A stretch of 64,000 nt of DNA from an uncultured Clostridia bacterium (GTDB lineage: Bacteria; Bacillota; Clostridia; Christensenellales; CAG-917): NCBI GenBank assembly GCA_934277615.1, contig CAKQUV010000001.1:206380-270379 (forward strand). The letters run 5' to 3'. Under the pieces are notes generated by a model. That model saw only the letters and a program-made list of their open reading frames with translations, made no database searches and was not told the origin of the DNA. Of the stretch, positions 14,340 through 55,794 are shown in pieces. A program made the position numbers and the translations under genes. Within the stretch, counting starts at the first letter, position 1, and each line of letters starts with the position of its first letter.

Positions 14340-14398
14340 AATATGTGTTTTTAAGTTTGATTTTTGTATAAAAAGATGTTGAAAAAGGAAATGGATGG

Positions 14399-14420
14399 AA
14401 AGTCGCTAATGCGACTTTTT
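14399..14420 (+). terminator. intrinsic terminator after yyaC
   Basis: aaagtcgc-taat-gcgacttt hairpin plus T5. Confidence 0.6.
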
Positions 14421-14442
14421 GTCGTTTGATAGACAAAAAGTA

Positions 14443-14471
14443 TTGCATAATGCGCGAGAGTCGATTATAAT
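14443..14471 (+). promoter_or_regulatory. sigma-A-type promoter for the cvpA-like gene
   Basis: TTGCAT (14443-14448), 17-nt spacer, TATAAT (14466-14471), about 50 nt upstream of ATG 14521. Confidence 0.5.
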
Positions 14472-14520
14472 AGTTATATCTACATATATGCGTGCATATT
14501 GCGCGCGATAAGGAGAAAAG

Positions 14521-15306
14521 ATGTTTTTGCAAGTGTTATCCGCAGATATACCCTACGCCGATATAGCGTTTTTCGTAATACTCGCTCTCGGCTTGTTGCT
14601 GGGTATTCTGCGCGGTTTTTCCAAATCGTTCAAAGGCTTTTTCCTCACGATAGGGATTATGCTTGCCGCACTTCTCATCCTCTCGCCTACCTTTGCAAAA
14701 GTGCGTGAAATCAGCGTATTTGACAAAATGGAAACTTCCATAACGGAAGGTATACAAGGAAAATCCGAACTGCTCAGCGAGCCCATTTACGTCGAAACGG
14801 ATGAAGAAGGCAAACGCACTTTCTACGTCGACGTAACGAAAGACGGCGTTACTACGCGCACAGATCTCGAAACAGTCATCAAAAACAGCGATATGTCCGG
14901 CAAGCTCAAAGGTCAAACGACGCTTTGGCTTGCGCAAAAATTTATTTACGAGGACGGACAATCCATCGGCGAGGTTGCCGGCGCTTTCATATCCGACCTT
15001 ATCGTGGCAATCGTGGCGTACGTCGTGTATTGCCTTGCGCTGGGACTTATATGCTGGCTGTTGCGCAAGATTTTTGCAAAGATGCACGACTCGGACAACA
15101 AACTTCTCAAAGCGCTCGACCGCACTTGCGGCGCAATCGTATCAACGGCATTTGCGGCTGTGTTTATTTTGCTTGTGCTTGCAATCCTTTACGCTTTGCG
15201 CGATAAAATAGGCGTTGTTGACACCGCCCTTCGCGATTCCAAAGTGTGCGGATATTTCTACCTTAACAACCCTGTGGCAAAACTATTCACCGAAATCTTC
15301 GGTTGA
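14521..15306 (+). CDS. CvpA-family membrane protein
   Basis: 261 aa, AAGGAG RBS. The N-terminal pattern (DIAFFVILALGLLLGILRGFSKSF...) and four hydrophobic helices are typical of colicin V production protein-like CvpA. Confidence 0.65.
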   Translation: MFLQVLSADIPYADIAFFVILALGLLLGILRGFSKSFKGFFLTIGIMLAALLILSPTFAKVREISVFDKMETSITEGIQGKSELLSEPIYVETDEEGKRTFYVDVTKDGVTTRTDLETVIKNSDMSGKLKGQTTLWLAQKFIYEDGQSIGEVAGAFISDLIVAIVAYVVYCLALGLICWLLRKIFAKMHDSDNKLLKALDRTCGAIVSTAFAAVFILLVLAILYALRDKIGVVDTALRDSKVCGYFYLNNPVAKLFTEIFG

Positions 15307-15357
15307 CACGACGTCGCGCTTTTTTAGGCGCGCGTTTTTTTATACGGAGTAACTATT

Positions 15358-18300
15358 ATGAGAGTATTACGCGGAACTTTGACCTTTATCCTCGGTATGG
15401 TAATCGGCATCATACTTTTCGTTCTTGCAATCGGCGGCGCGGTCTACATAATGGGCACGTCGATGACCGTCGGAGAATTGCAACAAAAATTTACCGATGA
15501 AGAGATTATCGCATCCGACAGCGAGGCGTACGGAAAAACTATTCTCGACGCTGCGCTCAAAGCGTACGACGATTTTAAAAACCTTGATAACCTCACGCTT
15601 GAATCCTTGTATAAATCTTACGGCATCAAAATGCTCAACGGCATTAGCGGCGTGGATTTCACAAACAAGGACTTCTACACCATGCCTTTGACCGAATTGT
15701 TTAAGGACCTGTCCAAAATTACCAATTCGTTTACACTCGATGATGTCGGCACGCTTGCCAAATTGGAATTCCCCGACATTCCCGTCATCGACGACAATCT
15801 TAACGTCGGCATGAAAGACGCCATAAACAATATCCTCGGCTCTATCGACGGAAATCTTACCGTGCGCGATATTCAAGGCAAATTCGGCATAGACATCGGT
15901 CTTGGCGCAAACAAAATGCTGCAAGCGGTGCAAGACGTAAAACTTTCTGCTTTCGGCGATACAATCAACGCGGTGCGCCTTTTCAACCTCATCGACGTGG
16001 ATGTGGACGAATTTATCAAATCGGGCAACAACACTGTTTACGTCAAGCTCGGCGACGACGGCGTTTTTGAAGAAGTAAGCAAGGAAGACCTTGCGCTCAA
16101 GGCAGGATATATCCCGCCCTTCGGCGTGGAAACGTATATTTCCGGGAGCATCGACGCGGACGAAAACGGCAAAGCGGACCACACAATAGAAAGGGAACTC
16201 CGCTACGTTCTGAAAACCAAGACGGACAAGGAAACGGGCGAGGAAACTTCGTCATACGTTGTCGACAACTCCTGTTATGAGGATAATTTCGACGCGGAAA
16301 CCAACGAAACGACGTATTATCGCCACGTTTTGTATTCCGTAAACGACGGCTCTCATACGGTGGAAAATCCCCTGTATTACGTGATTTCCTACGCAAACCG
16401 CATAGATTCTTATACAACCGATACGTTTTCGCTGGTGCAAAAGGGCTTCGCTTCCCTCGACAAACTCACAGTGTACAAAGACGGACAATACGTGCCTGCG
16501 TCGGCGCTTGTCGAGGGCGGCATGCAAACAATCGTCATCAACGACTTTGCGTTTGCCTATGAGAAAGACGGCGCAACGCAATCAAAGCCCGCTTCTCGCT
16601 ACTATATCACCGAATCTCCGATAACCAAAGACAGCCGCCTTCAAGCACTCGAGGACGGCGTAACCATAAGCGGCGATTATCTCATTGCGCACGAGGGCAC
16701 GTCCTCCAAAGTGTTGCAACTTGTGGCGTACATGACCGTTGCGGAACTTGAAAGCGCAGACGATATCCTCGATTCGCTCACAATCGGCGACGTTGTGGAT
16801 ACCGAGGCGGCAGATACCGCAAAAATCCTCAAAACGTTGGCTGATACAAAAATCGGCGAACTCGGCTCGAAAGTCGATACCCTCTCGCTTGCGGAAATGA
16901 CGGATATCACGTTTACGGCATACACGAGAGTGAACGGAGTAGGCGGAAGCTACGTGCTTGTAGAGGACAAAGACTCCGAGGGTAATTTTATCTATGTCAA
17001 CTATGATGACGAAAGCCCCAACAAGAACTACGTATCTCGCTATCGTTATGACAGCGAAACAAAGACATACAAGGCGGACGAAAAAGGCAAGTATATGCGC
17101 GCATATCATTTCACCTTGTACAACCCTGCTTTGCACAACGTTGACGGCAGTGCTCCGACGTACACTTACGATATAAACGAAGGCGCAGTCGAAAATCCCT
17201 CCTCAAAAGTGCTTCAACGCCTCGCATACACCAAAATCAACGACTTCTCCGGCTCGTTCAGTGATTTGTCGCTCGGCGAAGTTATGGATATCGACTCGGA
17301 TTTGTACGTCGTAGACGACGGCGCCGCCGCCGAAAATGCGACGAGATACTATTATGACTCCGCTCTCAACGTCTATATGCGCATAACCGAGAGCAACAAG
17401 GACGAGCATACCGCCGACGCCAAGTACGTCATCTCGAATGAAGGCGCTTCTCAATCCGTGCTCAAACGCCTCGCATTCGTCAAAATCGACGATATGTCCG
17501 ACGCTATGGAACAGATAACCAAAGATATGCTGCTCTCCGAACTCGTTGATATTTACAACGAATACGCAGTGCAAGAAAACACGTCTTTTGACCTCCTTGC
17601 ATACGACGAAACGAAAGATAGATTCTTCATCGAAGATACTGACGGCGACGGATACGTGTTTGCTTACAACGACAAAGGCAAGTACGTCAAAGGCGACTGG
17701 CGCATGGACGCATACGGCGCAGACGAGCTTGCGACAATCGCAGTCAAATATACCGCAACGTCCTATTCATACCAACCGATTACGTCAATCGCGGAGGCAA
17801 AAGCCGCTCTCACCTCTTACAACATCTACTACAAAGGTCAACGAGACGGCGTAACCGTATATGAAAACAATATCGCGCTTTGCTCGTATATCGTCGCGCA
17901 ATCGTTTTCAAGCGGAACGCTCCCCTCGAACACTCTTTATACGAGAGTAAGCAATACCGGTTACGAGAACCCTCAAACGAGCGTCGCTCGCTACGGCTCT
18001 GCGGGTGCGGAAAATATTTACGTGCTTATCAACGGCACTTATATCGCATACGATATGAGCAATCTCGCTCACCTCTCGCAAGACGTTTACTATAAGAAAG
18101 TGACCGCTGCGACAGGCGAAACGATGTATATAAGACAATCTCAACCCGGCATTTTGTCGGGCGCAACAGTCGAAACCGCACAAGACACGTCAAGTGCGAA
18201 ATTTGCAAAATACAAAGCCGAAGCGGTGTATTTCAAGACCACAAGCACAACCAACGCTTACGTCTTTGCAGGCGGTAAATACGTGCCTTATGACGAGAAC

Positions 18301-18807
18301 GTGCACGGCGCTGCGGATAAAAACGAATTGTTTGTCAAAAAGAGCGGATACATCGCGACGCTTACGGAAACGTACCTTGTCAACAACAACGAGGAAAAAG
18401 TGCCTATCCCCTCATCTGGACTTGCCAACACGCCCGTTACGCTCATAAGAGAAAAGAGTCAAGCCGTGCTGCGTATGCTTGCCAGAAAGGAAACGACAAT
18501 CGACACTATCAACACTGCGGTGCAAGAGGCGCAAATAAAAGATATTATGGACGTTGACGAGGACAGTTTGTTCTCGCGTTTCGAGGGCGCTACAATCGAG
18601 CAACTGAGCGACAAGGTGGAAACTTCACTCAAAGAAATGAGCGTCGGCGAATTGCTCGATTACATCAATATCGAGAAAGTCAACCCCGAAGTCAAAGCGG
18701 CTCTCTGCAACGTAACGTTGACCGACTTCTTCAAGAGTTTGGTGCCAAAAGCAGGTATCGGCATCGTTGTGGATATGGAAATTGCCTGCGGTTACAAGAC
18801 AAAATAA
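15358..18807 (+). CDS. large N-terminally anchored extracytoplasmic protein with degenerate internal repeats (function unknown)
   Basis: 1149 aa. N-terminal helix LTFILGMVIGIILFVLAIGGAVYIM. Acidic and Tyr/Thr-rich. About 7-8 copies of a ~30-aa motif (e.g. SKVLQRLAYTKINDFSGSFSDLSLGEVMDI; QSVLKRLAFVKIDDMSDAMEQITKDMLLSELVDI). Confidence 0.75.
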   Translation: MRVLRGTLTFILGMVIGIILFVLAIGGAVYIMGTSMTVGELQQKFTDEEIIASDSEAYGKTILDAALKAYDDFKNLDNLTLESLYKSYGIKMLNGISGVDFTNKDFYTMPLTELFKDLSKITNSFTLDDVGTLAKLEFPDIPVIDDNLNVGMKDAINNILGSIDGNLTVRDIQGKFGIDIGLGANKMLQAVQDVKLSAFGDTINAVRLFNLIDVDVDEFIKSGNNTVYVKLGDDGVFEEVSKEDLALKAGYIPPFGVETYISGSIDADENGKADHTIERELRYVLKTKTDKETGEETSSYVVDNSCYEDNFDAETNETTYYRHVLYSVNDGSHTVENPLYYVISYANRIDSYTTDTFSLVQKGFASLDKLTVYKDGQYVPASALVEGGMQTIVINDFAFAYEKDGATQSKPASRYYITESPITKDSRLQALEDGVTISGDYLIAHEGTSSKVLQLVAYMTVAELESADDILDSLTIGDVVDTEAADTAKILKTLADTKIGELGSKVDTLSLAEMTDITFTAYTRVNGVGGSYVLVEDKDSEGNFIYVNYDDESPNKNYVSRYRYDSETKTYKADEKGKYMRAYHFTLYNPALHNVDGSAPTYTYDINEGAVENPSSKVLQRLAYTKINDFSGSFSDLSLGEVMDIDSDLYVVDDGAAAENATRYYYDSALNVYMRITESNKDEHTADAKYVISNEGASQSVLKRLAFVKIDDMSDAMEQITKDMLLSELVDIYNEYAVQENTSFDLLAYDETKDRFFIEDTDGDGYVFAYNDKGKYVKGDWRMDAYGADELATIAVKYTATSYSYQPITSIAEAKAALTSYNIYYKGQRDGVTVYENNIALCSYIVAQSFSSGTLPSNTLYTRVSNTGYENPQTSVARYGSAGAENIYVLINGTYIAYDMSNLAHLSQDVYYKKVTAATGETMYIRQSQPGILSGATVETAQDTSSAKFAKYKAEAVYFKTTSTTNAYVFAGGKYVPYDENVHGAADKNELFVKKSGYIATLTETYLVNNNEEKVPIPSSGLANTPVTLIREKSQAVLRMLARKETTIDTINTAVQEAQIKDIMDVDEDSLFSRFEGATIEQLSDKVETSLKEMSVGELLDYINIEKVNPEVKAALCNVTLTDFFKSLVPKAGIGIVVDMEIACGYKTK

Positions 18808-21417: not shown

Positions 21418-21503
21418 AAAGGAGCGCAATGCGTTCCTTTTGGCGCTTCGACGTGGTACGCCTCAACATAATAAAAGGAACGCGATGCGTTCCTTTTGGC
21501 GCC
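21418..21503 (-). repeat. direct duplication of the tRNA 3' end plus terminator hairpin
   Basis: Minus strand: GCGCCA+aaaggaacgcatcgcgttccttt (21474-21503) is repeated as GCGCCA+aaaggaacgcattgcgctccttt (21418-21446). Confidence 0.6.
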
Positions 21504-21572
21504 TGTTGAGGGACTCGGACCCCCGACACTTCGGTTAACAGCCGAATGCTCTACCGACTGAGCTAAACAGGC
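21497..21572 (-). tRNA. tRNA-Asn (anticodon GTT), CCA encoded
   Basis: Hand-folded cloverleaf: acceptor gcctgtt/aacaggc, D arm gctc-agtcggta-gagc, anticodon arm ttcgg-ctGTTaa-ccgaa, variable loop gtgtc, T arm ggggg-tccgagt-ccctc, discriminator G, CCA. The T-loop has C at position 55, which is non-canonical. Confidence 0.85.
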
Positions 21573-23695: not shown

Positions 23696-23754
23696 TAATC
23701 GAAAACGAGGAAAAACAAGACAAAATAGCGCAAAATTAAGAGTTTATGTCGCTT

Positions 23755-23814
23755 TGTTGACAACTTGGAAAAGTTGTTGACAATATGTTGACGCAAATGC
23801 ACTTTTTGTCAACA
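23755..23814. promoter_or_regulatory. cluster of four TGTTGAC(A/G)(A/C) / TTGTCAACA 9-mers (variant DnaA-box or operator candidates)
   Basis: tgttgacaa 23755-23763, tgttgacaa 23775-23783, tgttgacgc 23786-23794, ttgtcaaca 23806-23814. A fifth copy is at 23899-23907. Each matches the DnaA box TTATCCACA at 7 of 9 positions. Confidence 0.4.
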
Positions 23815-23889
23815 TAACAACATGCTCTAAACGACAAGATATTGGGCTTGAATAAATGGTAAATAAGCATACTTTGTGGTGGTGGTTGT

Positions 23890-23907
23890 ATTTTCCACTT
23901 GTCAACA
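23890..23907. promoter_or_regulatory. 18-mer attttccacttgtcaaca (two overlapping DnaA-box-like 9-mers), repeated at 34744-34761
   Basis: 17/18 identity with attttccacttatcaaca at 34744-34761. Preceded by tgtggtggtggttgta and followed by a ~48-nt almost pure A/T tract up to the dnaN start. Confidence 0.45.
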
Positions 23908-23965
23908 TTGCTTATTTATGTTATCATTATTAAAAATAAAAGAATAAAAAATATATAGGCGAAAT

Positions 23966-25066
23966 ATGAAACTTATTTGTCAAGGAAACGAATTGAGCGA
24001 CGCTCTCGCAAAAGTTGTAAAGGCACTTCCCGTAAAACGTAATAATCCAATTCTCGACGGTGTAAAACTCACCGCTTTGGGTGATACGCTCACGATTTTT
24101 GCAACCGATCTCGAACTTGCAATTGAAAAGAAAATCAACGCGCAAGTGCTCATTGAAGGCGAAATCGTTGTACCCGGCAAACTTTTTGCGGATTACGCAA
24201 AGAAAATCGAGGAAGAACAAATCGAACTCGACGGCACCGATCCGACAAAACTCATCATCAAGTATCTTGATAGCGAATTGCAAATCAAGTGTATGAGTGC
24301 GGATGAATACCCTGTATTCAAAGAAGTCGATACGCAAAATTCTTTTATCATCCTCAAAAAAGAATTCAAAGACATTATTTCCAAGGTTATATTCAACGTT
24401 GCGGTTGACGAGGCAAGACCTTCCCTCCGCGGCGTGTGCCTCAACATCAAAGACGAAGAGGTTGAAGCTGTCGCATCCGACGGATATCGACTTGCTCTTG
24501 CAAGAGCGCAAATCAAAAACAACGGCATCGTTGACAAAATCGTCGTTCCTTCCAAGAGTATGAACGAGCTTGCTCGTCTTATCGACGAGGGTGAAGAAAC
24601 AATCACCGTCTATGTTGAGAAAAACTATATCATGGTTGACCTCTTCCACACTAAAATCGTTACAAGACTTATCGGTGAGGAATATATCAACTATGAAAAA
24701 ATTATCCCCAGCGTTTTCACCACTGAAGTTACAATCGACAAGAAGCTCTTTGAAAACGCAATCGATCGTGTATCCCTTATCAACCGCACCGAGAAGAAAT
24801 CTTACGTGAAGATGGAAATCAAAGAGGATACAATCTCCCTCAACGCACACAGCGATGACGGCGAAATCAACGAAAAAGTTACCATCGGTCTTAAAGGAAA
24901 AGATCTTACAATCGGTTTCAATTCCAAATACATCATTGACAGCATGCATGCAATCGACGAGCCGTTTGTAACTCTCAACTTCACAACCTCTACGGCACCG
25001 GGAATTATTAAGGGCGAGAGCGACCGTTGGCTGTATCTCATCCTTCCTCTCCGTGTCATCGGTTAA
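23966..25066 (+). CDS. dnaN: DNA polymerase III beta sliding clamp
   Basis: 366 aa of typical three-domain clamp length. MKLICQGNELSDALAKVVKALP..., RPSLRGVCLNI, C-terminal ...LILPLRVIG. Confidence 0.95.
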   Translation: MKLICQGNELSDALAKVVKALPVKRNNPILDGVKLTALGDTLTIFATDLELAIEKKINAQVLIEGEIVVPGKLFADYAKKIEEEQIELDGTDPTKLIIKYLDSELQIKCMSADEYPVFKEVDTQNSFIILKKEFKDIISKVIFNVAVDEARPSLRGVCLNIKDEEVEAVASDGYRLALARAQIKNNGIVDKIVVPSKSMNELARLIDEGEETITVYVEKNYIMVDLFHTKIVTRLIGEEYINYEKIIPSVFTTEVTIDKKLFENAIDRVSLINRTEKKSYVKMEIKEDTISLNAHSDDGEINEKVTIGLKGKDLTIGFNSKYIIDSMHAIDEPFVTLNFTTSTAPGIIKGESDRWLYLILPLRVIG

Positions 25067-25074
25067 AAAACGCG

Positions 25075-25225
25075 CTAAATAGCGACTAACTTTGTCAGTG
25101 CCCCGAGCCCGCCAACTCATTTACGATTAGTAAATTAGGGTTGTCGTTCTCGGGGCACTTTCGCGTTACTCATCTGTTTGGTGAGCTTTTATATATTTTT
25201 TATTATAATTCATCTATTTATCGCG
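25075..25225 (+). repeat. family-A palindromic intergenic element, copy A1
   Basis: ctaaatagcgactaactttgtcag + stem gtgccccgag (25098-25107) + conserved core caactcatttacgattagtaaattagggttg (25113-25143) + stem ctcggggcac (25149-25158) + tttcgcg...ttcatctatttatcgcg. Starts 9 nt after the dnaN stop. Confidence 0.75.
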
Positions 25226-26976: not shown

Positions 26977-28077
26977 ATGAAAATCCTTTCGCTCGAACTT
27001 CAGAACTTCAGAAACTACCTCGAGGCCGCTGTAAACTTTGCAGACGGTCTTAACGTTTTGTACGGGCAGAATGCGAGCGGAAAGACCAATATGCTGGAAT
27101 CTATATATCTTTGCTCCATTTTCCACTCCCCTCGCACTACAAAGGACAAGGAAATGATTTTGCTTGGCAAAGACAAAGCAAGGGTGAAAATCGCGCTCGA
27201 AAGGAAATTTAGAAAACACACTATAGTCCTTCAAATAGACGCTCAAGGCAAGAAAAAAGTTGCCGTGGACGGTATCCCTGTCAATCGCGCAGGTGAACTT
27301 TTGGGAGTGCTCGGCGTGGTGTTTTTCTCCCCCGATGAAATGAAACTCGTCAAAGAGGCGCCTCAAGAAAGACGCAGATTTTTGGACGTGGGCATATCCC
27401 AACAACAAAAGGCGTATTTTATCGCGCTTCAACGCTACAACAAAACGCTCAAGCAAAAGAACAATCTTCTCAAAGAATACAAGTATCAAAACATAGACGA
27501 TATGCTTGACGTTTGGGATGCGTCGCTTGCAAAAGAAGGCGCGATTATCGTGCAAAAACGAAAGGAATATATAGCCACGTTGAGCGACGCCGCGCGCAAA
27601 TTTCACTTTGCGTTAAGCGGCGAAAAGGAAACTCTTGCCCTCTCGTACGAAAGCGGCGTAAAAACGGATTGTGAGGACAGTCAGCTTGAAAGCAATTTAT
27701 ATTCCTCAATTGTCGCATCAAGGCAAAAAGACAAAGAACTCGGTTTTTGCACTGTCGGACCTCATCGCGACGATATCAAAATCGAAATCAACGGCAAAGA
27801 CAGCCGCAAGTTTGCATCGCAAGGTCAGCAGCGCACCATTGCGCTTGCAATGAAACTCGGTGAAGTGATTATCTACAAAAACGAAATCGGAGAGCCGCCC
27901 GTTTTGCTCCTCGACGACGTGCTTTCCGAACTTGATGAAAACAGACAAACCACCCTACTCAAAATGACGGAAGGTTTCCAAACAATTCTCACCTGCACGG
28001 AATATACTCTTCCGAATAAAGCCAACAAGATAAACATAAAAGACGGCTCGGTTGTAGGTGGAAAAATTAATAGTTAA
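26977..28077 (+). CDS. recF: DNA replication/repair protein RecF
   Basis: 366 aa. MKILSLELQNFRNY, Walker A GQNASGKTNMLESI, signature SQGQQRT, Walker B VLLLDDVLSELD. Confidence 0.95.
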   Translation: MKILSLELQNFRNYLEAAVNFADGLNVLYGQNASGKTNMLESIYLCSIFHSPRTTKDKEMILLGKDKARVKIALERKFRKHTIVLQIDAQGKKKVAVDGIPVNRAGELLGVLGVVFFSPDEMKLVKEAPQERRRFLDVGISQQQKAYFIALQRYNKTLKQKNNLLKEYKYQNIDDMLDVWDASLAKEGAIIVQKRKEYIATLSDAARKFHFALSGEKETLALSYESGVKTDCEDSQLESNLYSSIVASRQKDKELGFCTVGPHRDDIKIEINGKDSRKFASQGQQRTIALAMKLGEVIIYKNEIGEPPVLLLDDVLSELDENRQTTLLKMTEGFQTILTCTEYTLPNKANKINIKDGSVVGGKINS

Positions 28078-28481: not shown

Positions 28482-29381
28482 TTACAGTTTATCGTTATAC
28501 TTCAAGATTTGGACGAGAGCGTAAATTCTGTCAAGGTCGTCCTTATTGAAGTAGTCGATTGTGATACGACCTTTTTGGTCGTTACCAACAAGTTTGACCT
28601 TGGTTGCGAAGATGCGTTTCATATCGCCGACAAACTCTTTGAGTTCCAAAGACATAACGCCTTTTTCTCTCGGACCTGACGGAATGGCTTTTCTCGTGAA
28701 GTACAATCTTACACGGTTTTCGAGGTCGCGTACGGAAAGTTTGTTGTCGCAGGCTTGTTTTGCAAGCGTAACAAGATATTCTTTATCGTCAATCGAGATA
28801 AGCGTTCTTGCGTGTCCGGGGGAGAGCTTGCCTTCTCTGACGAGCTCGGTAACTTCGTCGGGGAGTTGCAAAAGTCGCAATGTGTTGGTTACGTACGGAC
28901 GAGATTTGCCAATACGGGATGCAACTTCTTCTTGAGTGAGCCCGTGATTTTCCATAAGTTCGCGCATACCTTCCGCCGCTTCGATTGCGTTGAGGTCTTC
29001 GCGGTGCAAGTTTTCGATGAGCGAAATCTCTTGTATTTGTTGCGGAGTAAAATCTCTGATGATTGCGGGCACTTTTTTAAGACCTGCGAGAAGGCTGGCT
29101 CTGAAACGACGTTCACCTGCGATGATGAGGTATCTTCCGCCCTCGCTTCTCACCAAAATAAGCGGTTGCAAAACGCCGTATGTGGCAATTGACGTAGCCA
29201 TTTCTTTGAGGCTGTCCTCATCGAACGTTTTTCTCGGCTGATTGGGGTTGCGGTCAATGAGCGTGATATCGATTTCTTGCGCTACGATATCGTCGGAGAT
29301 ATCCACTTTTACATTTTCTTCATTGTCGTTGAAAAGTGCGTTAAAGCCTTTGGAACCAAGTCCGCCTTTTGTATTTGCCAT
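28482..29381 (-). CDS. parB: ParB/Spo0J chromosome partitioning protein
   Basis: 299 aa. ParB box LQPLILV...YLIIAGERRFRA, HTH GLTQEEVASRIGKSRPYVTNTLRLL. AAGGAG RBS. The start lies 3 nt downstream of the parA stop codon (29385-29387). Confidence 0.93.
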   Translation of the reverse strand: MANTKGGLGSKGFNALFNDNEENVKVDISDDIVAQEIDITLIDRNPNQPRKTFDEDSLKEMATSIATYGVLQPLILVRSEGGRYLIIAGERRFRASLLAGLKKVPAIIRDFTPQQIQEISLIENLHREDLNAIEAAEGMRELMENHGLTQEEVASRIGKSRPYVTNTLRLLQLPDEVTELVREGKLSPGHARTLISIDDKEYLVTLAKQACDNKLSVRDLENRVRLYFTRKAIPSGPREKGVMSLELKEFVGDMKRIFATKVKLVGNDQKGRITIDYFNKDDLDRIYALVQILKYNDKL

Positions 29382-29384: not shown

Positions 29385-30140
29385 TCACTCCTTATGTTTT
29401 GATATAAATTCTTGCGCAAGAGCTTTATATGCAAGCGCGCCTGCGCATTTTTCGTCGTAATTGTTTATTGTTTTTGCAAAACTCGGCGATTCCGCAAGCC
29501 GAATATTGCGAGGTATTTTGGTATCGAATACGGCGCTTTTGAATAGCGTTCGCACGTTGTTTTCCACATCTTGCGCAAGTTTGTTGCGCATGCACATAGT
29601 GAGCAGCACTCCGTCGATTTCGAGAGTCGGATTTAGATGCTTTTTCACAAGTCGCACGGTATTGAGCAGTTGATTCATGCCCTCCAAAGCAAAATATTCG
29701 CATTGAAGAGGTACAATCACGCCGTTTGACGCAGCGAGCGCATTGACAAGCAGCAGATTTATGGACGGCGCGCAATCTATAAAGATGTAGTCGTACCTGT
29801 CAAGAACATCGGATAGCACGTTTTTAAGCACGTATTCTCTGTTCTCTTTGTCTTTAAGTTCGAGTTCCGCACCCGTCAAATCCCTTGACGACGGCACAAA
29901 ATCGAAGTCTACACCCTTTCTGATGCAAGGTCTGATATTGCCGGCGCATAGCGCGGTATATATCGAATTATCGACTTTTTTGTCGAACACCCCGAGCGCG
30001 CTTGACGCGTTGGCTTGCGAATCTAGGTCAACGAGCAAAACTTTGTATCCCGAGAGAGCGATATAAGCGGCAAGATTTACACACGAAGTGGTTTTGCCGA
30101 CGCCTCCCTTTTGGTTTGAAAAGGATACGACGTACGCCAT
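29385..30140 (-). CDS. parA: ParA/Soj partition ATPase
   Basis: 251 aa. Deviant Walker A NQKGGVGKTTS, and IFIDCAPS. Confidence 0.93.
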   Translation of the reverse strand: MAYVVSFSNQKGGVGKTTSCVNLAAYIALSGYKVLLVDLDSQANASSALGVFDKKVDNSIYTALCAGNIRPCIRKGVDFDFVPSSRDLTGAELELKDKENREYVLKNVLSDVLDRYDYIFIDCAPSINLLLVNALAASNGVIVPLQCEYFALEGMNQLLNTVRLVKKHLNPTLEIDGVLLTMCMRNKLAQDVENNVRTLFKSAVFDTKIPRNIRLAESPSFAKTINNYDEKCAGALAYKALAQEFISKHKE

Positions 30141-30178: not shown

Positions 30179-30199
30179 TGTTTCACAAAAAGTTTCACG
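30179..30199. promoter_or_regulatory. two parS half-sites (TGTTTCAC, GTTTCACG) in the parA upstream region
   Basis: gatgtttcacaaaaagtttcacgaaaaa lies 40-60 nt upstream of the parA start codon (30140). Confidence 0.4.
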
Positions 30200-30254: not shown

Positions 30255-30944
30255 TTATAAGGGTTTTTTCTTTATACTCCCATACACTCTTGGGTACTGC
30301 GGCGGAGTTTGTTTTACTTTTTCAAAAACCATAATTGCACGCTTATCCCCGTTTGGTAAATTCAAAAACTTGGTGTGCAAATGCTTTGCGCCAAGCACTT
30401 TCATTGCGTTTTGAGCGCTTTCAAGTTCACTCTCGTCCGTCTTGTACGCAAGGAAAATTCCGCCCACTTTCAAAAACGGCATAGCAAGTTCAAGCAAAAT
30501 CGGAAGTGCGGAAACTGCCCTTGCCGTAACCACGTCGTACTTTGCAAATTGCGTCTTTTGCTCTTCCGCTCTGCCTGCTATCGTTGAGATATTATTTATT
30601 CCAAGCTGCCTTGCGCTTTGCGATACGAACGCCATTTTCTTTGCCGTGGAATCGAGCGCAGTTACCGATACGTCATCTCTTGCAATGGCAATTGGCATAG
30701 ACGGAAACCCACCGCCGGAGCCTATATCGCAAAGTTTTGCGCCGTGCGGAATTTCGCTTATTCCTGCAAGCGAGTCTATGATATGCTTTATGGTAAAGTC
30801 TTTCTCTTCGGTGATTGCGGTGAGGTTGAAAGCCTTGTTGCACTCAACCACTTTTTCATAGTACGAACAAAGCGCTTCCGCTTGATCGGAAGTTATAGTT
30901 GCGCCAACTTGTGCCGCTCCGTTTACAAGAAAGTCTTTATCCAT
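30255..30944 (-). CDS. rsmG: 16S rRNA (guanine527-N7)-methyltransferase RsmG (GidB)
   Basis: 229 aa. SAM motif DIGSGGGFPSMPIA. Sits in the typical gidB-parA-parB context. Confidence 0.92.
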   Translation of the reverse strand: MDKDFLVNGAAQVGATITSDQAEALCSYYEKVVECNKAFNLTAITEEKDFTIKHIIDSLAGISEIPHGAKLCDIGSGGGFPSMPIAIARDDVSVTALDSTAKKMAFVSQSARQLGINNISTIAGRAEEQKTQFAKYDVVTARAVSALPILLELAMPFLKVGGIFLAYKTDESELESAQNAMKVLGAKHLHTKFLNLPNGDKRAIMVFEKVKQTPPQYPRVYGSIKKKPL

Positions 30945-31206
30945 ATGAATATAATAACATTTTTTCTTGCGTTTTTCAAGCGTCGAGCCTCAATATTTAT
31001 AAAGCTATCAATTTGACGTTAAATTGCAAAACACGGTGTTTATATCGTTAAAATTGCAAGATTAAATATCAATATTGCTGTTTGTAATCGAAATTTACAA
31101 AATCTACAACAAAAAGAAAATATACAAATTTGCAAGACATTTTTTGCCCTGCTATTGTACTTAATACGAAATAGTGATAAAATATATAAACAAACGGAGG
31201 CAGTAT

Positions 31207-31929
31207 ATGAGAATTGCAATCGTAACCGCTATGGCGGAAGAAACGTTGCCAATCTTCCAAAAACTCGGCAACGTAGTTGATCAAAGTACAATAGCAGGCG
31301 TAGCTATCAGCAAGATAGAGCTTGACGGCGACACTATATATCTTGCAACGAGCGGCGTGGGCGAGGTCAAAGCCGCGCTTGCCGTGCAATTGCTTGTGGA
31401 TTTGTTCGATGTGGAAATTGTCCTCAACTTTGGCTTTGTCGGAGCGGTGGGCAAATTTGACGTGGGTGAAATCGTCGTGCCGAGAAAGGTCGTGCATTAT
31501 CAATTCGACGTAACGGAAGTGGATACGGATAGAAAGGTCGGACAATACAGCGGCATGGCGGACAACTTCTTCTATCTTGACGAAGTGGTCATCCAAAACG
31601 TGCTTGCCAATATCGGCAAACCCGTCAAACTTGTCAGCGTCGCAAGCGGCGATAAGTTTGTGGCAATCAAAGAAGAAAAACAAAGACTCAAAAGGGAGTT
31701 CGACGCGGACATCTGCGAGATGGAACTTGCAGGGCTTGCCATTGCGTGCGAGCGCAACAACATCCCCCTCTTCTCCGTCAAGGTGGTCAGCGACAACGCC
31801 GAGGAAGGCGCAAACGTGAGTTTTGAAACCGTTATGGCAAAAGGCGTCGCAGGTTACGAGAAGATGTTGCCTGCTATCCTTAAAGCCGTCAAAGAGGGCG
31901 CAAGCGCACTTCCGCCCGTAAAGGAATGA
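31207..31929 (+). CDS. mtnN: 5'-methylthioadenosine/S-adenosylhomocysteine nucleosidase
   Basis: Start at ATG 31207 with GGAGG RBS. MRIAIVTAMAEE...ATSGVGEVKAALAVQLL...NFGFVGAV (PNP_UDP_1 fold). Immediately upstream of luxS, which forms the activated methyl cycle pair. Confidence 0.85.
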   Translation: MRIAIVTAMAEETLPIFQKLGNVVDQSTIAGVAISKIELDGDTIYLATSGVGEVKAALAVQLLVDLFDVEIVLNFGFVGAVGKFDVGEIVVPRKVVHYQFDVTEVDTDRKVGQYSGMADNFFYLDEVVIQNVLANIGKPVKLVSVASGDKFVAIKEEKQRLKREFDADICEMELAGLAIACERNNIPLFSVKVVSDNAEEGANVSFETVMAKGVAGYEKMLPAILKAVKEGASALPPVKE

Positions 31930-31938: not shown

Positions 31939-32367
31939 ATGGAAAAGATAACGTCGTTTACAATCGACCACAACGTGCTTAAAAAGGGTTTTTACCTCAG
32001 CCGTGTGGATAAAAACGTGTTTACATACGATTTGCGCTTTAAAGAGCCGAATAAAGGCGACTATCTTCATATGGCTGCAATGCACACTATAGAGCATTTA
32101 TTTGCCACTGTTGTGCGCAACAGCGCGTATAAGGATAAAGTTGTGTATTTCGGCCCTATGGGCTGCAGAACGGGCTTTTATTTGCTTTTGTTCGATACGG
32201 ACAAAGATGAGGCACTCGCGCTCACCAAAGAGTGCGTCGCAAAATGCCTCGAACTCGATACGATCCCCGGTAGCAAGAAAATCGAGTGCGGAAACTACCG
32301 CTCTCACAACCTTGCCGGCGCAAAGAAAGAATTGTCCGAATATCTTGACGTCCTCAACACCCTGTGA
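31939..32367 (+). CDS. luxS: S-ribosylhomocysteine lyase LuxS
   Basis: 142 aa. Metal site HTIEHL and GCRTGFY. Confidence 0.93.
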   Translation: MEKITSFTIDHNVLKKGFYLSRVDKNVFTYDLRFKEPNKGDYLHMAAMHTIEHLFATVVRNSAYKDKVVYFGPMGCRTGFYLLLFDTDKDEALALTKECVAKCLELDTIPGSKKIECGNYRSHNLAGAKKELSEYLDVLNTL

Positions 32368-32483
32368 AACAGAGCTGAGTTGATATCTATATGTAAAAAA
32401 GTTTGTGTGCCGATATATTGTAATAAATCAAATACGAGTTTAGTGATAAATACTCATAACATAACATTTAAAAACGCACGGAT

Positions 32484-32515
32484 AACAGGTTGACGAAGCG
32501 TCAGCCTGTTTTTTC
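32484..32515 (+). terminator. intrinsic terminator after luxS
   Basis: aacaggttgacg-aagc-gtcagcctgtt followed by tttt. Confidence 0.7.
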
Positions 32516-32924
32516 ACTTTTACAATGAGTTATATTTCAACAAAACGAAAAAATAATAGTTTATAAGTAAACTATTATAACATATATAAACATATTGAAA
32601 TAGTGTGATAAACAGGGAAAACTCAGGTACATAAAACAATACGTGATTTTGATAATTGCCGAATATGGGTAAATAGTGTAAATAGTGTAAATAGCATGAA
32701 TATGTAAAAAAATATTGTGTTAAGTATAAGAAGGCTTAATTTGAATTGTAAATAGTAATTCATAGGTATAATTGTAATAATGTCATATTTATAAAGTGCC
32801 GATATTGCGGTCTGATAAGAATATATAAATAGACGGAGTGATTTAAACAAAGAGAGAAAAGCATATACTCACCGCCATTCTGTTTGTGATTAATTATGAT
32901 GATTTTTTGACATTTATCTCATAT

Positions 32925-32940
32925 TGTTTCACGTGTAACG
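32925..32940. promoter_or_regulatory. parS-like site tgtttcacgtgtaacg
   Basis: 14/16 match to the Firmicute parS consensus TGTTNCACGTGAAACA. Confidence 0.6.
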
Positions 32941-33051
32941 TATAGAAAAGCAAATATCAAGTTTCTACGAAATAAGCAAAATTATTAAATAAAAGCGTGC
33001 CGAGGTTTTAACTAAACTCGATACACTTGCTTTTATATTTGCGATTTGTAT

Positions 33052-33719
33052 TTATATATTATACCGAGAAATCGTTCGATGATATTCGTATATCGTATAC
33101 GTTGCTTTATAGTGATGTTGCCGATTATCTATCCGAGATTTGGCTCGATAATCGAGTAATCTCCCATTATCGTTCCATTCGCCGTACATAATACCCTTCC
33201 TTGTATTCTCGACAAATTTTGCCAGTCGTGATTGATAAAGTTCGAGTCGATGTTTGTTGAATTGAATTGTGTCTATTCTCACTCTTTGATATAGCGGCGG
33301 AAAACTCAAAAAGTTTTGCCACACAACGTTATCTGATTGCAGCAGGATTAATATATCTTGATTTATAACAAAACCACTCTCTGACATATCCGGTAACGCA
33401 GCTCTTCCGCTATCCGTCATAAGGCCGAGCTTCTCAAGCCTTCTGCAACGCTCATTATTAAGTTCTGTCCGGTTGCTGTTTTTCTACGCTTTGCAAAACG
33501 CTGCGCGGTGCTAGTATCCGATATTTTCTTTTGGGTGCTGTCAATCCAACCAAAGCATAGGGCTTCTTCAACCGCATCAATATACCAAAACGTAGTGCTA
33601 TCTGTAGGGCGACCTCTTTTAACTATTGCCCGGCATTCGTTTTCTTTCGAGTGATTATCCGTAAGCCACCCTCGGAACTCATATCTATTTTTGACGTTAA
33701 GCAAGTTTATTGTTTCCAT
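33052..33719 (-). pseudogene. YdeI/OmpD-associated family gene split by a 1-nt frameshift in an A5 run
   Basis: ORFs 33417..33719 and 33052..33420 encode the N and C halves of one YdeI-like protein. The second frame already reads KNSNRTELNNERCRRLEKLGLMTDSG upstream of its ATG. An A6 in place of the A5 (rc of 33479-33483) would restore a single ORF. Confidence 0.7.
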
Positions 33720-33785
33720 ATGCCGATTATACCACTATATATCGGAGTGGTCAATATTCCGCAAAAATCTATAAAAACGCAAAAT

Positions 33786-33801
33786 TGTTTCACGTGTAAC
33801 G
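33786..33801. promoter_or_regulatory. parS-like site tgtttcacgtgtaacg
   Basis: Same 16-mer as 32925-32940. Embedded in a 24-nt perfect direct repeat attgtttcacgtgtaacgtataga. Confidence 0.6.
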
Positions 33802-33870
33802 TATAGAGAAAATAGGCTAAACTCATACTAAATAGTAGAAGAGTAGCATGTTTTTGTGCATTAATCAAAA

Positions 33871-33888
33871 TGTGGATAATATGGATAA
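33871..33888. promoter_or_regulatory. two tandem DnaA boxes
   Basis: TGTGGATAA (perfect complement of TTATCCACA) is immediately followed by TATGGATAA (8/9). A further AGTGGATAA lies at 34021-34029. Confidence 0.55.
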
Positions 33889-34197
33889 TGATCAAATTGC
33901 GGGTAGAATTATATAATTTGATTATTACTACTTAGCATCTAATTGCAATTATTAGTCGGTGTTATTTTGACGATATTCAATCGTACTATAACAACCGCAA
34001 TATCAATAATTTACGTGTATAGTGGATAAACAATTATTGCCTCAAATTGAGAATAAAAACAAAGGCAAACATCACTAAAAACTGTATAAATCGAGATAAA
34101 AGCGCAACGAGAGCATGCGGTGTTTGATTGAAAGTAATAATAGTGATATGAGTGATAATATGGTGTGTTTATCGGAGAAATCGATGTAAAACGTCTA

Positions 34198-34213
34198 TGT
34201 TTCACGTGTAACA
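34198..34213. promoter_or_regulatory. parS-like site tgtttcacgtgtaaca
   Basis: 15/16 match to TGTTNCACGTGAAACA. Confidence 0.7.
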
Positions 34214-34230
34214 ATTTGATTTTCGAACCC

Positions 34231-34246
34231 CGTTTCACGTGGAACG
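34231..34246. promoter_or_regulatory. parS-like site cgtttcacgtggaacg
   Basis: 14/16 match read on the complementary strand (CGTTCCACGTGAAACG). Lies 17 nt from the previous site. Confidence 0.65.
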
Positions 34247-34743
34247 AAAACATCTGAAAACCCACTATTTAGTGGGGTTTTAGGCTGTTTTTGCTACCCA
34301 AAAAATAATTTTTGGTCTTTCACCATGTAAATTTTGACAGAAAAATTTTCGACCTTTCACCCAAATTTTTCGGCATAAAATGTTTCTCGATTTTTATAGA
34401 AAATTTTTACTGTTTCACACTGTTTCTATTGTTTGTATCTATGTTGTGTTTTTCTATATGATTCTTCTAGTGAAATCTTCTGTAATCTATAGTGATAAGT
34501 GCTGATTTTACCTGTTATTAATCTCTATTTTTCTATGCAATTTGATATTGAAGTATTGTTTACTGCTTTGTGTTTTGCTTGATGATGTACGACATAAACG
34601 GATAAATGCACTCATTTTTTCGTATCTCGTAATTCGCTTTTACAATATGATTATTAGGGTGTTTTTGATTTTGTTTATATTCTTTTGTATGCATAAAACA
34701 AGCAAAAACGCCGCTAAATAATGCGGCGTTTCACGGAAAACAA

Positions 34744-34761
34744 ATTTTCCACTTATCAACA
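34744..34761. promoter_or_regulatory. 18-mer attttccacttatcaaca (TTATCAACA is a DnaA box with 1 mismatch); second copy of the dnaN-upstream 18-mer
   Basis: 17/18 identical to 23890-23907. Confidence 0.45.
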
Positions 34762-34931
34762 CGTCAATGTCGGCTCAAACGGTTGAATTTCTATCGTTTT
34801 AGAGAAAAACATTATAAAACAGTTTACAAGTAAACATATGTACTTTCTTGTTTTTATACTTTTTGTCTTTTTTACGGTATTTTTTATTGCTCACAAAGAT
34901 CGATATTTGCCATTGAAAATTACTTTTTCTT

Positions 34932-35627
34932 TTATCTGAGTTGCATATATGTTGCTATCAGGAAAAGCATCGGACCTACAAGTACAAAAACGTGGAATAC
35001 GCAATGGACGTAGCGTTTATGCACACCGAAGAGCAATGCGCCTATAAGGCAGGATATCAGTCCAAAGAGATAAACAATGCTGGTTGCTAGCGGTATACCC
35101 GTTTCGCTGAAATACGCCGTGAAGAACGCGGCAAACATCAATCCGCCTATAACGAACGTCGAGGCAACTGACACTTTGCGGAAGATATCGAAGCGGACTT
35201 GACAAAGTATGAATATCAAAAGCGCAATTACAAGCGACGCGCCGAGCGCGACATAGCCGTATATGCTGCCGTACATGAGGCATGTTGCCGTTGCGCAGGC
35301 GATCACGTTGAGGTTGACGGCAGGGAAATCCACTTTGCGCCAAACAAGCTTACGTTTTAAATCCGTAACGCCGTGATACGTTGCCGACACGGCAAATTCG
35401 ATTGCTATAAATGCGCAGGACAACACAGCGCTTGCGTATGCGGCAGGAGTTGTGGCTTTTATGAGCATAAATATCATAAAAATCAGCGCAAAAACCGTGC
35501 CGAAAGCGTGCGTCGCGACGTTTATCAACTCTTCCTTGGGTGTGTAATACACGAGTTGATTTTGCTTGTACACTTCCTTCAATTCGTCGGTGTTGTCCGG
35601 CGTTTTCAATCTTTCTTTCAAATCCAT
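34932..35627 (-). CDS. hemolysin III / PAQR family membrane protein
   Basis: Seven hydrophobic helices. N-terminal EELINVATHAFG motif and C-terminal HVFVLVG. Start set at ATG 35627 (231 aa); the ORF track extends to a GTG at 35723. Confidence 0.8.
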   Translation of the reverse strand: MDLKERLKTPDNTDELKEVYKQNQLVYYTPKEELINVATHAFGTVFALIFMIFMLIKATTPAAYASAVLSCAFIAIEFAVSATYHGVTDLKRKLVWRKVDFPAVNLNVIACATATCLMYGSIYGYVALGASLVIALLIFILCQVRFDIFRKVSVASTFVIGGLMFAAFFTAYFSETGIPLATSIVYLFGLISCLIGALLFGVHKRYVHCVFHVFVLVGPMLFLIATYMQLR

Positions 35628-35789
35628 AGTTTTATCGTAAAGCAAAAATCTTGCTATGGCAAGCGATTGTGGCAATCTAAAACCGCCCAAAACGACGAAA
35701 TTCGTAAAAGATTGTCCAAACACTCATCCGCTGCCCTGGATTGAAAAAAGAGCGGTTTGAGTGCGCCAAAACAAAATTTGCGAAAACTC

Positions 35790-35846: not shown

Positions 35847-37796
<1,950 letters not shown>

Positions 37797-37806: not shown

Positions 37807-40386
37807 ATGGCAAACATAAGAGACGATAAAAACAACGAATATGTCCAACATATAGCCAATTCGACCGTCAAAGACGTCGAAATCAACGGCGAGCTCAAAA
37901 AATCGTTCATCGCATATGCGATGGCGGTCAATGTATCCCGTGCAATCCCCGACGCAAGAGACGGTTTGAAGCCCGTTCACAGACGTATTTTGTACGCTAT
38001 GAGCGAGCTCGGACTCACTCCCGACAAGCCTTATCGTAAGTGCGCTATGGTCGTCGGTGAAGTGCTCGGTAAATACCATCCCCACGGCGACAGTTCCGTA
38101 TACGACGCAATGGTACGTCTTGCGCAAGACTTCTCCATTCGTTGCCCGCTCATCGACGGACACGGCAACTTCGGCTCAATCGACGGCGATCCTGCGGCTG
38201 CTTACCGTTATACGGAGGCAAGACTTTCCAAAATCGCGTTGGAAATGATCCGCGACATAGACAAAAAGACGGTTGATTTCTATCCCAACTTCGACGACAC
38301 GCGCGAACAACCGGTTGTATTGCCCTCCCGTTTCCCCAACTTGCTCGTAAACGGCTCAGACGGTATCGCGGTCGGTATGGCGACGTCCATTCCTCCGCAC
38401 AATCTCGGCGAGGTTATAGACGCGTCTGTCGCGCTCTTGAAAAACCCCGAGGCGACCGTTGAGGAACTTATGGAATATATCCCTGCTCCCGACTTCCCGA
38501 CAGGCGCGCTCATTTTGGGCAGACACGCAATCAAACAAGCGTACAAGACGGGTCGCGGCGGTTGCATTTTGCGCGCTAAGGCGGAAATCGAAGAGATGGC
38601 AAACGGCAAGAGTCGTATCGTCGTAACCGAGATTCCTTACCAAGTCAACAAAGCAAAACTTATCGAGAATATCGCAGACCAAGTCAAAGACAAACGCCTT
38701 GAAGGCATCAGCGACCTTCGCGAAGAAACGGACCGCCACGGTATGCGTATCGTTATCGAACTCAAAAAGGACGTCAACGCGCAAGTTTTGCTCAATCAAC
38801 TTTACAAACAAACGCAAATGCAAACCAATTTCAGCATGATTATGCTTGCGTTGGTTGACGGTGTGCCTCGCGTTCTCAATCTCAAAGAGATTTTGGAATG
38901 CTACATTGCGCACCAAAAAGACGTTATCGTACGCCGCACTCGTTTCGACCTCGAAAAAGCTCAAGAAAGACAACATATCTTGATGGGCTTGCATATCGCG
39001 CTTGAAAACATCGACGCTATCGTGGAATTGCTCAAAAAATCCCGCGACAGACAAGACGCTATGGCAAAACTTATGGAAAATTACGGCCTTAGCGACAAGC
39101 AGGCGGCGGCAATACTCGACATGCGTTTGCAACGCTTGACAGGACTCGAAGTCGAGAAAATCAATGCGGAACTTGAAGACCTTGACAAGCAAATCGCATA
39201 CTTTACAATGGTGCTCGGCAGCGACGAAGAGATTGTCAACATCATCATCAAGGAGCTTGGCGACATCAAGGCGCAATACAACACTCCCAGACTTTCCGAG
39301 CTCACTTACGATTACGGCGATATCGACATCGAGGACCTTATCGAAAGAGAGGACGTTGTCATTTCCATGACTCACGGCGGATATATCAAGCGTATGCCTG
39401 TTGCAGAGTATAAGGCTCAACACAGAGGCGGCATGGGTATCACCGCTCACAAAGCCAAAGACGAGGACTTTGTGGAGAGAATTTTCACGTCCAATACTCA
39501 CGAAAGACTTATGTTCTTCACCAATAAGGGCAAGGTATTCACCCTCAAGGCGTATGAAATTCCCGAGGCGACTCGCAACGCTCGCGGCAGAGCGGCTGTA
39601 AACCTCTTGCAACTCGAACAAGGCGAGAAGATTCAAACCATTCTTCAAATGCCGGAAGAGAGAGAAAACAAGTTCCTCATGCTCGCAACCAAGCAAGGTC
39701 TTATCAAAAAGACTCCGCTCGAGGAATACGATTCAATCAAACGTAACGGCAAGATCGCAATCAAGTTCAACGACGATGACGAACTTATCGGCGCAGCGAT
39801 TACAACCGGCAACGACGAAGTGCTTGTAGCCTCCAGCGCAGGTATGAGCATCCACTTCAACGAGAAAGACGTGCGCCCCGTCGGCAGAACGGCAATGGGC
39901 GTCAAGGCGATGAACATCGACGACGGCACGACGCTTGTGGCGTTCGACGTAGTGCGTGAAGGCGACGAAATCCTCACCGTTACGTCAACAGGTTACGGCA
40001 AGCGCAGCTCCATTGCGGACTACCCGATTCAAAACAGAGCGGGCAAGGGCGTCAAAGCAGGAGTGTTCAACGACAAGACGGGTACGCTCGTGTGCTTGAA
40101 GGTTATACCCGCGGATACCGACGTCATGATGATCACCGACAGCGGCGTTATCATCAGAGTGCAAGCGGATGAGATTAGCAAGATCGGCAGAGCAACGCAA
40201 GGCGTGCGTATCATGAAACTCAAAGACGACAAGTTCAAGGTTATGGCAATCGCGCTCACTCCTCACGAGGACGAAGAAGAAGGCGTCGAATACGACGAGG
40301 AAGGCAACCCGATTGTAGTAGCGACCGATGACAATCAAGCGGTCGAGGGTGAAGTGGAAGAAACCACTCAAAACGACCAAGAATAA
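37807..40386 (+). CDS. gyrA: DNA gyrase subunit A
   Basis: 859 aa. [19 protein letters not shown], catalytic region [12 protein letters not shown]-terminal beta-pinwheel repeats and an acidic tail. Confidence 0.97.
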
Positions 40387-42139: not shown

Positions 42140-42245
42140 ATAGCGAATAACTGCGGCAGAGCCGTTCGCTGGTCAACTCATTTACGATTAGTAAATTAGG
42201 GTTGCCCCTCGGACGGCTCTTTCTTGTTCTTCATCTATTTATCGC
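42136..42245 (+). repeat. family-A element, copy A2
   Basis: ctaaatagcgaataactg + stem agagccgt (42158-42165) + core caactcatttacgattagtaaattagggttg (42174-42204) + stem acggctct (42213-42220) + ttcttgttcttcatctatttatcgc. Its first TAA (42137-42139) is the stop codon of the glucosidase gene. Confidence 0.8.
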
Positions 42246-55733: not shown

Positions 55734-55794
55734 TATATCTCTTTGACGGCTTTATATTATGGCGTCATTAAGCGATATACTTCGTCAAAGTCTA

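Follow-up and report, generated by a model that had tools for sequence, protein, structure and literature searches.

A stretch of 64 kb from the genome of an uncultured Christensenellales bacterium (contig CAKQUV010000001.1; hereafter the window) contains, between luxS and a HlyIII/PAQR-family gene (hlyIII), a ~2.5-kb island that, judging from its sequence, is very probably the chromosomal ParB-binding centromere of this organism, that is, a cluster of parS sites. We read it as the chromosomal centromere of the whole family because parS matches are in excess there, the parAB genes lie 3 kb away, the sites cluster in the same way in 39 of 39 related loci and the surrounding synteny is kept. An initial annotation of the window had proposed a dedicated partition or ParB-loading locus at this position, a proposal well supported by sites matching the universal chromosomal parS consensus, the nearby genes for a canonical ParB and a ParA and the syntenic conservation. 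The core element is an ordinary chromosomal parS cluster, of a known kind and well conserved.

parS sites, par genes and their conservation

Scanning both strands of the whole window with the consensus TGTTNCACGTGAAACA returned seven strand-matches at up to two mismatches, compared with 0.18 expected, a count reached in 0 of 100 shuffles. At up to three mismatches there were ten matches, all ten of them in the island (whole-window expectation, 2.8); outside it the 64 kb contained no match at this threshold, parB included, in agreement with the initial annotation. Four good sites and one decayed site fall within 1.8 kb (Table 1). The four 16-mers first listed keep their positions but not their scores: the site at 34198 is a perfect 16/16 match, those at 32925 and 33786 reach 15/16 on the other strand, and that at 34231 scores 14/16. 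The sites are better than first scored because the supposed 'T12 variant' is the free N5 position of the consensus read from the other strand, which also renders a binding test of that variant moot. parS-5 scores 14-15/16 in most relatives (for example, TGTTTCACGTCAAACA). parS-1 lies within a 27-nt direct repeat (32923-32949) common to parS-2, and the inverted-repeat pairs I1 and I3 are flanks common to parS-2 and parS-4. The flanks shared by parS-2 and parS-4 suggest that the array grew through local duplication, which fits the idea that new parS sites are tolerated only near a native cluster (PMC5815017).

The parB product carries ParB_N (E = 4e-32) and HTH_ParB (E = 3e-36) domains together with a GERRFRA motif; it passed the TIGR00180 model (191.6 bits, cut-off 58) and stayed under the cut-off of the Noc model (223 bits, cut-off 315). 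ParA matches AAA_31 (E = 7e-60). Two direct half-parS sites precede the parAB promoter and are kept in most of 48 related loci compared, suggesting autoregulation by ParB that works through half-sites instead of a full parS.

As initially annotated, the island is A+T-rich and contains no intact gene. Its G+C content is 0.32, compared with ~0.47 for the window, and 1-kb bins give 0.31-0.37 in the island versus 0.44-0.51 in the flanks; a YdeI/OmdA-family remnant lies within it. Both convergent flanking genes end in intrinsic terminators that delimit the island, and Pfam/NCBIfam annotation places dnaA, dnaN, recF, gyrB and gyrA all within 10 kb of it.

The comparison with relatives proposed in the initial annotation began from a ParB search of a species-representative genome collection, which yielded 71 loci, nearly all from uncultured Christensenellales or Clostridia assemblies of gut and rumen metagenomes; the nearest carry the labels Christensenella sp. 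UBA767 (99%), UBA7571 and UBA7588 (96%). The family set comprised 39 species-level loci of 7-21 kb, with ParB 73-99% identical and at least three parS sites each. The parS cluster recurred in 39 of 39: all parS sites of a locus lie in one cluster (span 0.3-3.2 kb, median four sites), and every cluster includes a tandem parS pair spaced 32 or 33 bp start to start. Wherever a locus includes both flanks, the cluster sits between pfs/luxS and hlyIII/gyrB, a position kept even in lineages with a rearrangement of the parAB-dnaA block relative to the cluster. Over 34 species, mean column conservation was 0.95 for parS-3 and 0.89 for parS-4, compared with ~0.5 in neighbouring unconstrained DNA. The single conserved cluster, its synteny and the conservation of the parS columns settle, on comparative sequence evidence, that the array is functional and ancient, being neither a chance cluster nor a recent insertion.

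More distant Clostridia (L053, L054, L056, L057 and L068) carry 3-5 perfect parS sites right around or after parB, with 4-5 perfect sites within 600 bp directly after parB in L056 and L057; Clostridia therefore commonly have compact, non-coding parS arrays. The initial view that so dense an array is unusual is unsupported, because parS sites are normally packed densely near the origin: several of them lie close to oriC in most bacteria (PMC7022226), in Caulobacter a 5-kb segment some 8 kb from ori holds the five strongest (PMC5815017), and L056 and L057 are alike.

From these features we infer that ParB binds, spreads and loads SMC at the island. ParB dimers, with GERRFRA as their cytidine triphosphate (CTP)-binding motif, would use their helix-turn-helix domains to recognise each 16-bp palindrome and would then close into CTP-dependent clamps that slide onto and coat the flanking DNA. 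With several loading sites in 1.8 kb, two of them forming an invariant pair spaced by three helical turns, the local ParB density would rise; ParA would use the ParB complex to separate newly replicated origins, and ParB would recruit SMC condensin at the island. The untranscribed placement between convergent terminators may shield the parS sites from RNA polymerase traffic.

Several points weigh against the centromere reading. ParB binding and localisation in this uncultured organism are predictions, as are the binders of the accessory motifs described below; the scan covers 64 kb of the genome, and more parS sites may lie elsewhere; and parS-5 is decayed in the source genome. That ParB binds half-parS heptamers, moreover, has been documented for Pseudomonas and certain other species, and such binding was not seen for B. 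subtilis ParB (PMC10419367, PMC7022226).

Table 1. Positions of the parS sites, accessory motifs and genes in the window
Feature	Position	Strand	Description
Island	32368-34931		Between luxS and the HlyIII/PAQR-family gene
parS-1	32925-32940		15/16; CGTTACACGTGAAACA on minus strand
parS-2	33786-33801		15/16; kept together with its flank in relatives
parS-3	34198-34213		Perfect, 16/16; TGTTACACGTGAAACA on minus strand; first site of tandem pair
parS-4	34231-34246		14/16; second site of tandem pair, 33 bp start to start from parS-3
parS-5	34727-34742		Decayed here, 13/16 (3 mismatches)
Direct half-parS sites	30180-30198	-	GTGAAAC-5 nt-GTGAAAC; few nt upstream of parAB -35 (TTGAAA)
Half-site block	34296-34435	+	Conserved, A+T-rich; same-strand half-parS-like heptamers, right of tandem pair
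Block heptamer CTTTCAC	34317-34323, 34354-34360	+	
Block heptamer GTTTCTC	34382-34388	+	
Block heptamer GTTTCAC	34412-34418	+	
Companion palindrome (hairpin)	34257-34281		AAAACCCACTATTTAGTGGGGTTTT; bidirectional-terminator form
Degenerate companion palindrome	33825-33838		ATACTAAATAGTAG here; CCACTAAAYAGTRG in relatives
Border palindrome A	32553-32578		Core GTTTATAAGTAAAC at 32559-32572; conserved across 17 genomes
Border palindrome B	34822-34835		GTTTACAAGTAAAC
Abutting DnaA boxes	33871-33888	-	TTATCCACA, perfect (33871); TTATCCATA, 1 mismatch (33880)
DnaA box	34021		1 mismatch
Tandem DnaA-box-like pair	34745-34761	+	TTTTCCACT/TTATCAACA; 3 nt from parS-5
Best oriC candidate	23740-23965	+	Four TTGTCAACA boxes, TTTTCCACTTGTCAACA, T-centred trinucleotides, A+T-rich run to dnaN start
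YdeI/OmdA-family pseudogene	33052-33719	-	PF13376, E = 9e-9; between parS-1 and parS-2
Promoter-like site of pseudogene	33726-33754	-	TTGACC, 17 nt, TATAAT, with TG; 11/12 consensus, consensus match only
Intrinsic terminator of luxS	32484-32510	+	12-bp stem then T-run; left limit of the untranscribed island
Intrinsic terminator of hlyIII gene	34705-34732	-	Overlaps parS-5
dnaN	23966-25066	+	Pfam/NCBIfam
dnaA	25496-26869	-	Pfam/NCBIfam; inverted relative to usual order
recF	26977-28077	+	Pfam/NCBIfam
parB	28482-29381	-	Pfam ParB_N, HTH_ParB
parA	29385-30140	-	Pfam AAA_31/CbiA
rsmG	30255-30944	-	Pfam/NCBIfam
pfs/mtnN	31174-31929	+	Pfam/NCBIfam
luxS	31939-32367	+	Pfam/NCBIfam
hlyIII (HlyIII/PAQR family)	34932-35723	-	Pfam/NCBIfam
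gyrB	35886-37796	+	Pfam/NCBIfam
gyrA	37807-40386	+	Pfam/NCBIfam

Accessory motifs and the variable slot

The TTTCAC half-sites of the initial annotation, located at 34317, 34354, 34412 and 34728, are all present, as are its tandem DnaA boxes at 33871-33888, the element at 34021 and the hairpin. Within the half-site block, three heptamers sit in repeats of the form A-run, T-run, 5 nt, (C/G)TTTCAC. The GTTTCAC at 34412 is invariant over the 34 species; conservation is ~0.86 for TGTTTCnC and 0.78 for both CTTTCAC copies, and the family alignment of the block contains no conserved reading frame, indels interrupting every frame. The half-parS heptamers, both those adjoining the tandem pair and those of the parAB promoter, probably give ParB extra contacts, the promoter pair being probably autoregulatory, and ParB contacts combined with promoter autoregulation are the most economical reading of the half-sites. 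To our knowledge, none of the operators of Rex, Spo0A, CodY or other regulators fits the TTTCAC and palindrome motifs in orientation or spacing.

Within the family's parS zones (76 kb) the companion palindrome CCACT-N4-AGTGG occurs 44 times, compared with four times in the 577 kb outside them, an enrichment of ~84-fold, and it stands at fixed offsets beside parS-2, parS-4 and parS-5. Beside parS-2 it has no T-run. In one subgroup the copy after the tandem pair is swapped for a different inverted repeat, a substitution that favours a structural role for the palindrome at this place.

At the island borders, AGTTTAYAAGTAAAC is present in two exact copies, at 32558 and 34821, which are in direct orientation and are the only ones in the 64 kb, and GTTTAC-WW-GTAAAC is found exactly twice in the window, once per border. 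Among close relatives, both borders carry the palindrome in eight loci and the left border alone in about eight more; the right-hand copy, where present, lies 93-95 bp from parS-5. Its central dinucleotide, and with it the orientation, switches freely between species, suggesting a symmetric site bound by a protein and not one used in recombination. A third copy with one mismatch, GTCTACTTATAAAC, lies at 55790-55803 in A+T-rich intergenic DNA at 55-56 kb (G+C 0.38). The RicO/ricS origin-anchoring system was considered as the source of the palindromes and rejected, ricS not being palindromic.

Between parS-1 and parS-2 is a slot (32941-33785) whose gene content varies by species. Here it holds the YdeI/OmdA pseudogene, whose frame is broken by the deletion of 1 nt from a T-run (33481-33485), whose stop codon is gone and whose promoter-like site lies ~30 bp from parS-2. 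The YdeI gene is intact in the slots of L001, L003 and L004 and has been broken independently, through different lesions, in the source genome and in L045. The slots of L010 (5989-6603), L011, L013, L015 and L018 hold an unrelated 204-aa open reading frame (ORF), for which a Pfam search returned no family. We also considered the 27-nt repeat shared by parS-1 and parS-2 as a target-site duplication and rejected this, given that both copies are parS sites conserved in many species; that the gene between the copies varies by species contradicts it as well.

A more elaborate model, which we regard as doubtful, is that of a composite, bounded centromere, in contrast to a loose group of parS sites, made up of the parS pair with its half-site array, CCACT-N4-AGTGG, the DnaA-box pair 3 nt from parS-5 and the identical border palindromes GTTTAC-WW-GTAAAC. 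On this model, the half-parS array, in A+T-rich DNA beside the invariant pair, would offer ParB extra contacts as at its own promoter; CCACT-N4-AGTGG, whose offset is fixed at three of the five parS sites, would belong to the unit; and the DnaA-box pair and border palindromes would act as protein roadblocks that hold sliding ParB clamps to ~2.3 kb and link DnaA occupancy to the partition complex.

The oriC candidate and rival explanations

The clade DnaA-box consensus TTRTCMACA occurs 12 times in the window, compared with two expected, and four of these boxes lie within 150 bp upstream of dnaN. There, TTTTCCACTTGTCAACA is followed by a 3-nt spacer, the series CTT ATT TAT GTT ATC ATT ATT and an A+T-rich run to the start codon, in a region that is near-invariant in ~30 species. 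This is likely the oriC unwinding region, alternatively or additionally the dnaN promoter, and it mirrors two known arrangements: C. difficile oriC2, where the same strand reads 5'-CTACTACTATTACTACTA in the unwinding region upstream of dnaN (PMC7561715), and the box, DnaA-trio and A+T-rich unwinding system, in which at least three trios and an A+T-rich unwinding element come within 16 bp after a box or pair (PMC8287927). GC skew in the 64 kb is too flat for placing the origin; the island lies 9-11 kb from this predicted oriC.

The initial annotation had also suggested a second part of oriC in the island, and in its broader form this alternative holds that the island is, in addition or instead, an oriC sub-region or a DnaA-titrating or regulatory cluster, with the A+T-rich block as the unwinding element. 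We hold it to be improbable, although several features invite it: the perfect and abutting one-mismatch DnaA boxes at 33871-33888 with a further box at 34021; the tandem TTTTCCACTTATCAACA 3 nt from parS-5, which is conserved in the family and matches the dnaN-upstream tandem at 16 of 17 positions; the strongly conserved 140-bp A+T-rich block; the adjoining gyrB; and the precedent of B. subtilis, in which origin-proximal DnaA-box clusters modulate initiation together with Spo0J (PMC3245932). The boxes are nevertheless few, with two exact TTRTCMACA boxes in the island (plus three with one mismatch) compared with the four in 150 bp upstream of dnaN, and the perfect box at 33871, 85-91 bp from parS-2, occurs in just 8 of 13 close species. 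The reading fails on the defining arrangement, because neither island box pair has T-centred trios and an A+T-rich stretch within 16 bp and the conserved A+T-rich block has no adjoining DnaA box: the pair at 34745-34761 is followed by CGTCAATGTCGGCTC, with no trios and no A+T-rich run, and on the minus strand the trio-like CTACTCTTCTACTATTT begins 24 nt off 33871-33888. The arrangement is found upstream of dnaN instead, and known bipartite origins flank dnaA within ~2 kb, compared with 9-11 kb here (PMC7561715). DnaA probably binds the boxes beside parS-2 and parS-5, which would make up a box cluster near the origin; the pair adjacent to parS-5 is kept down to 78% ParB identity and has the form of TTTTCCACTTGTCAACA upstream of dnaN. 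The B. subtilis clusters likewise comprise boxes near but outside oriC, with a reported Spo0J link (PMC3245932), whereas the island has only 2-4 predicted boxes, one pair lying 3 nt from a parS site.

The remaining alternatives fare no better. For the island, an origin as a plasmid or phage partition cassette that has since decayed, as initially proposed, or as another mobile islet inserted between luxS and hlyIII, is exceedingly improbable. Its low G+C relative to the window, the identical 15-mer in direct orientation at both borders, and the pseudogene and cargo slot differing between species would suit such an origin, but the island ORFs include no integrase, replication or transposase gene, and sensitive blastn of the island recovered only 134 bp of the YdeI gene among 72,556 plasmids and no match among 50,697 phages. 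The parS sites fit the chromosomal consensus that the adjacent chromosomal ParB would recognise, the same cluster synteny recurs in 39 species-level genomes with no patchy presence (39/39 loci reaching the region), and the border palindrome flips orientation freely between species, unlike attachment sites. A small RNA encoded by the hairpin and the conserved 140-bp block, in place of DNA-binding sites there, is also very unlikely. The terminator-like hairpin at 34257-34281 and the adjoining non-coding block are indeed conserved in sequence, but RNAalifold on both strands of the block found no conserved structure except the hairpin, in which covariation is uninformative (a compensatory change in one of nine pairs), and no convincing promoter for a small RNA was found. 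Rfam searches gave only a sub-threshold GcvB chance match for the island under permissive settings and one tRNA for the whole window at gathering thresholds, and the best-conserved columns of the block are exactly the half-parS heptamers.

Other features were observed around the predicted origin. The gene order dnaN (+), dnaA (-), recF (+) is odd: dnaA is inverted and separates dnaN from recF, and there is no rpmH-dnaA-dnaN context of the usual kind. Among relatives the orientation of dnaA differs, and dnaN, dnaA and recF share a single strand in L033, L034, L039 and L041-L043. A tRNA-Asn (GTT) gene (21497-21572, minus strand) lies ~2.2 kb from the predicted oriC, and left of the predicted origin 1665-18807 holds very large plus-strand ORFs of 1057, 2153 and 1149 aa, the last without a Pfam match, which would be head-on to replication if oriC is at ~23.8 kb. 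The 31-nt sequence CAACTCATTTACGATWAGTAAAYTAGGGTTG occurs in three copies, all on the plus strand (25113-25143, 42174-42204 and 55561-55591), with none expected. The first two lie directly 3' of the plus-strand genes dnaN and alpha-amylase, respectively, and the third is intergenic, ~580 bp beyond the closest plus-strand gene end; those at 25113 and 55561 are visibly within a longer G+C-rich stem. The element has no Rfam match and may belong to a REP-like or terminator-associated repeat family.

Known partition systems and significance

The closest parallels to a chromosomal parS cluster of this kind come from well-studied bacteria. Caulobacter crescentus has about five sites in a few kb, ~8-10 kb from the origin and next to parAB, and the clustering there has been proposed to raise local ParB density; its sites lie in essential or high-fitness-cost genes, whereas all those described here lie in a ~2.5-kb non-coding, terminator-bounded island (PMC5815017). 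The island cluster is also tighter than that of Caulobacter (1.8 kb) and includes an invariant 33-bp tandem pair.

In Bacillus subtilis, parS sites lie mostly inside genes, spo0J included. The Spo0J system resembles the island in its identical 16-bp consensus TGTTNCACGTGAAACA and in its neighbourhood of ParB, ParA and rsmG near oriC; Spo0J acts in origin segregation and SMC loading, and the same role would be expected here (PMC4536313). Its four strongest sites are 5-39 kb apart (PMC5815017), whereas the island is one compact array with no site in parB. Pseudomonas aeruginosa is similar in having four sites, parS1-4, close to oriC; intergenic parS sites in Pseudomonas adjoin ParB-repressed promoters, and ParB binds the heptamers GTTTCAC and GTTCCAC (PMC4368675, PMC10419367, PMC7022226). 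The Pseudomonas half-sites number in the hundreds and are scattered, whereas the putative ones here are few, position-conserved and placed beside the pair and, as a 12-bp direct repeat, by the parAB -35.

The A-box heptamer of phage P1 parS is ATTTCAC. With P1 the island shares a resemblance only, to a composite centromere of A-boxes, B-boxes and an IHF site, in which helix-turn-helix contacts of the ParB type are made to TTTCAC-like heptamers, alongside a second motif and a stretch of bendable A+T-rich DNA (PMC2910045). Unlike P1 parS, the island has a core of full chromosomal palindromes and a ParB with the chromosomal domain set, and no B-box or IHF site was identified in it.

The core element leaves current understanding unchanged, and the accessory motifs are the only part possibly worth experiments. 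What the comparison provides is a definition of the centromere, together with a likely oriC, for a large uncultured gut clade, the small-genome Christensenellales, known mostly from metagenome-assembled genomes, which would be useful for orienting and checking assemblies and for coverage-based estimates of growth rate. The role of half-sites for chromosomal ParB is debated, and the positionally invariant half-parS repeats, like the juxtaposition of parS-5 with a DnaA-box pair, would offer a natural test case in compact form. Should ParB or DnaA bind these accessory elements, they would bear on the cross-talk between chromosome segregation and the initiation of replication.

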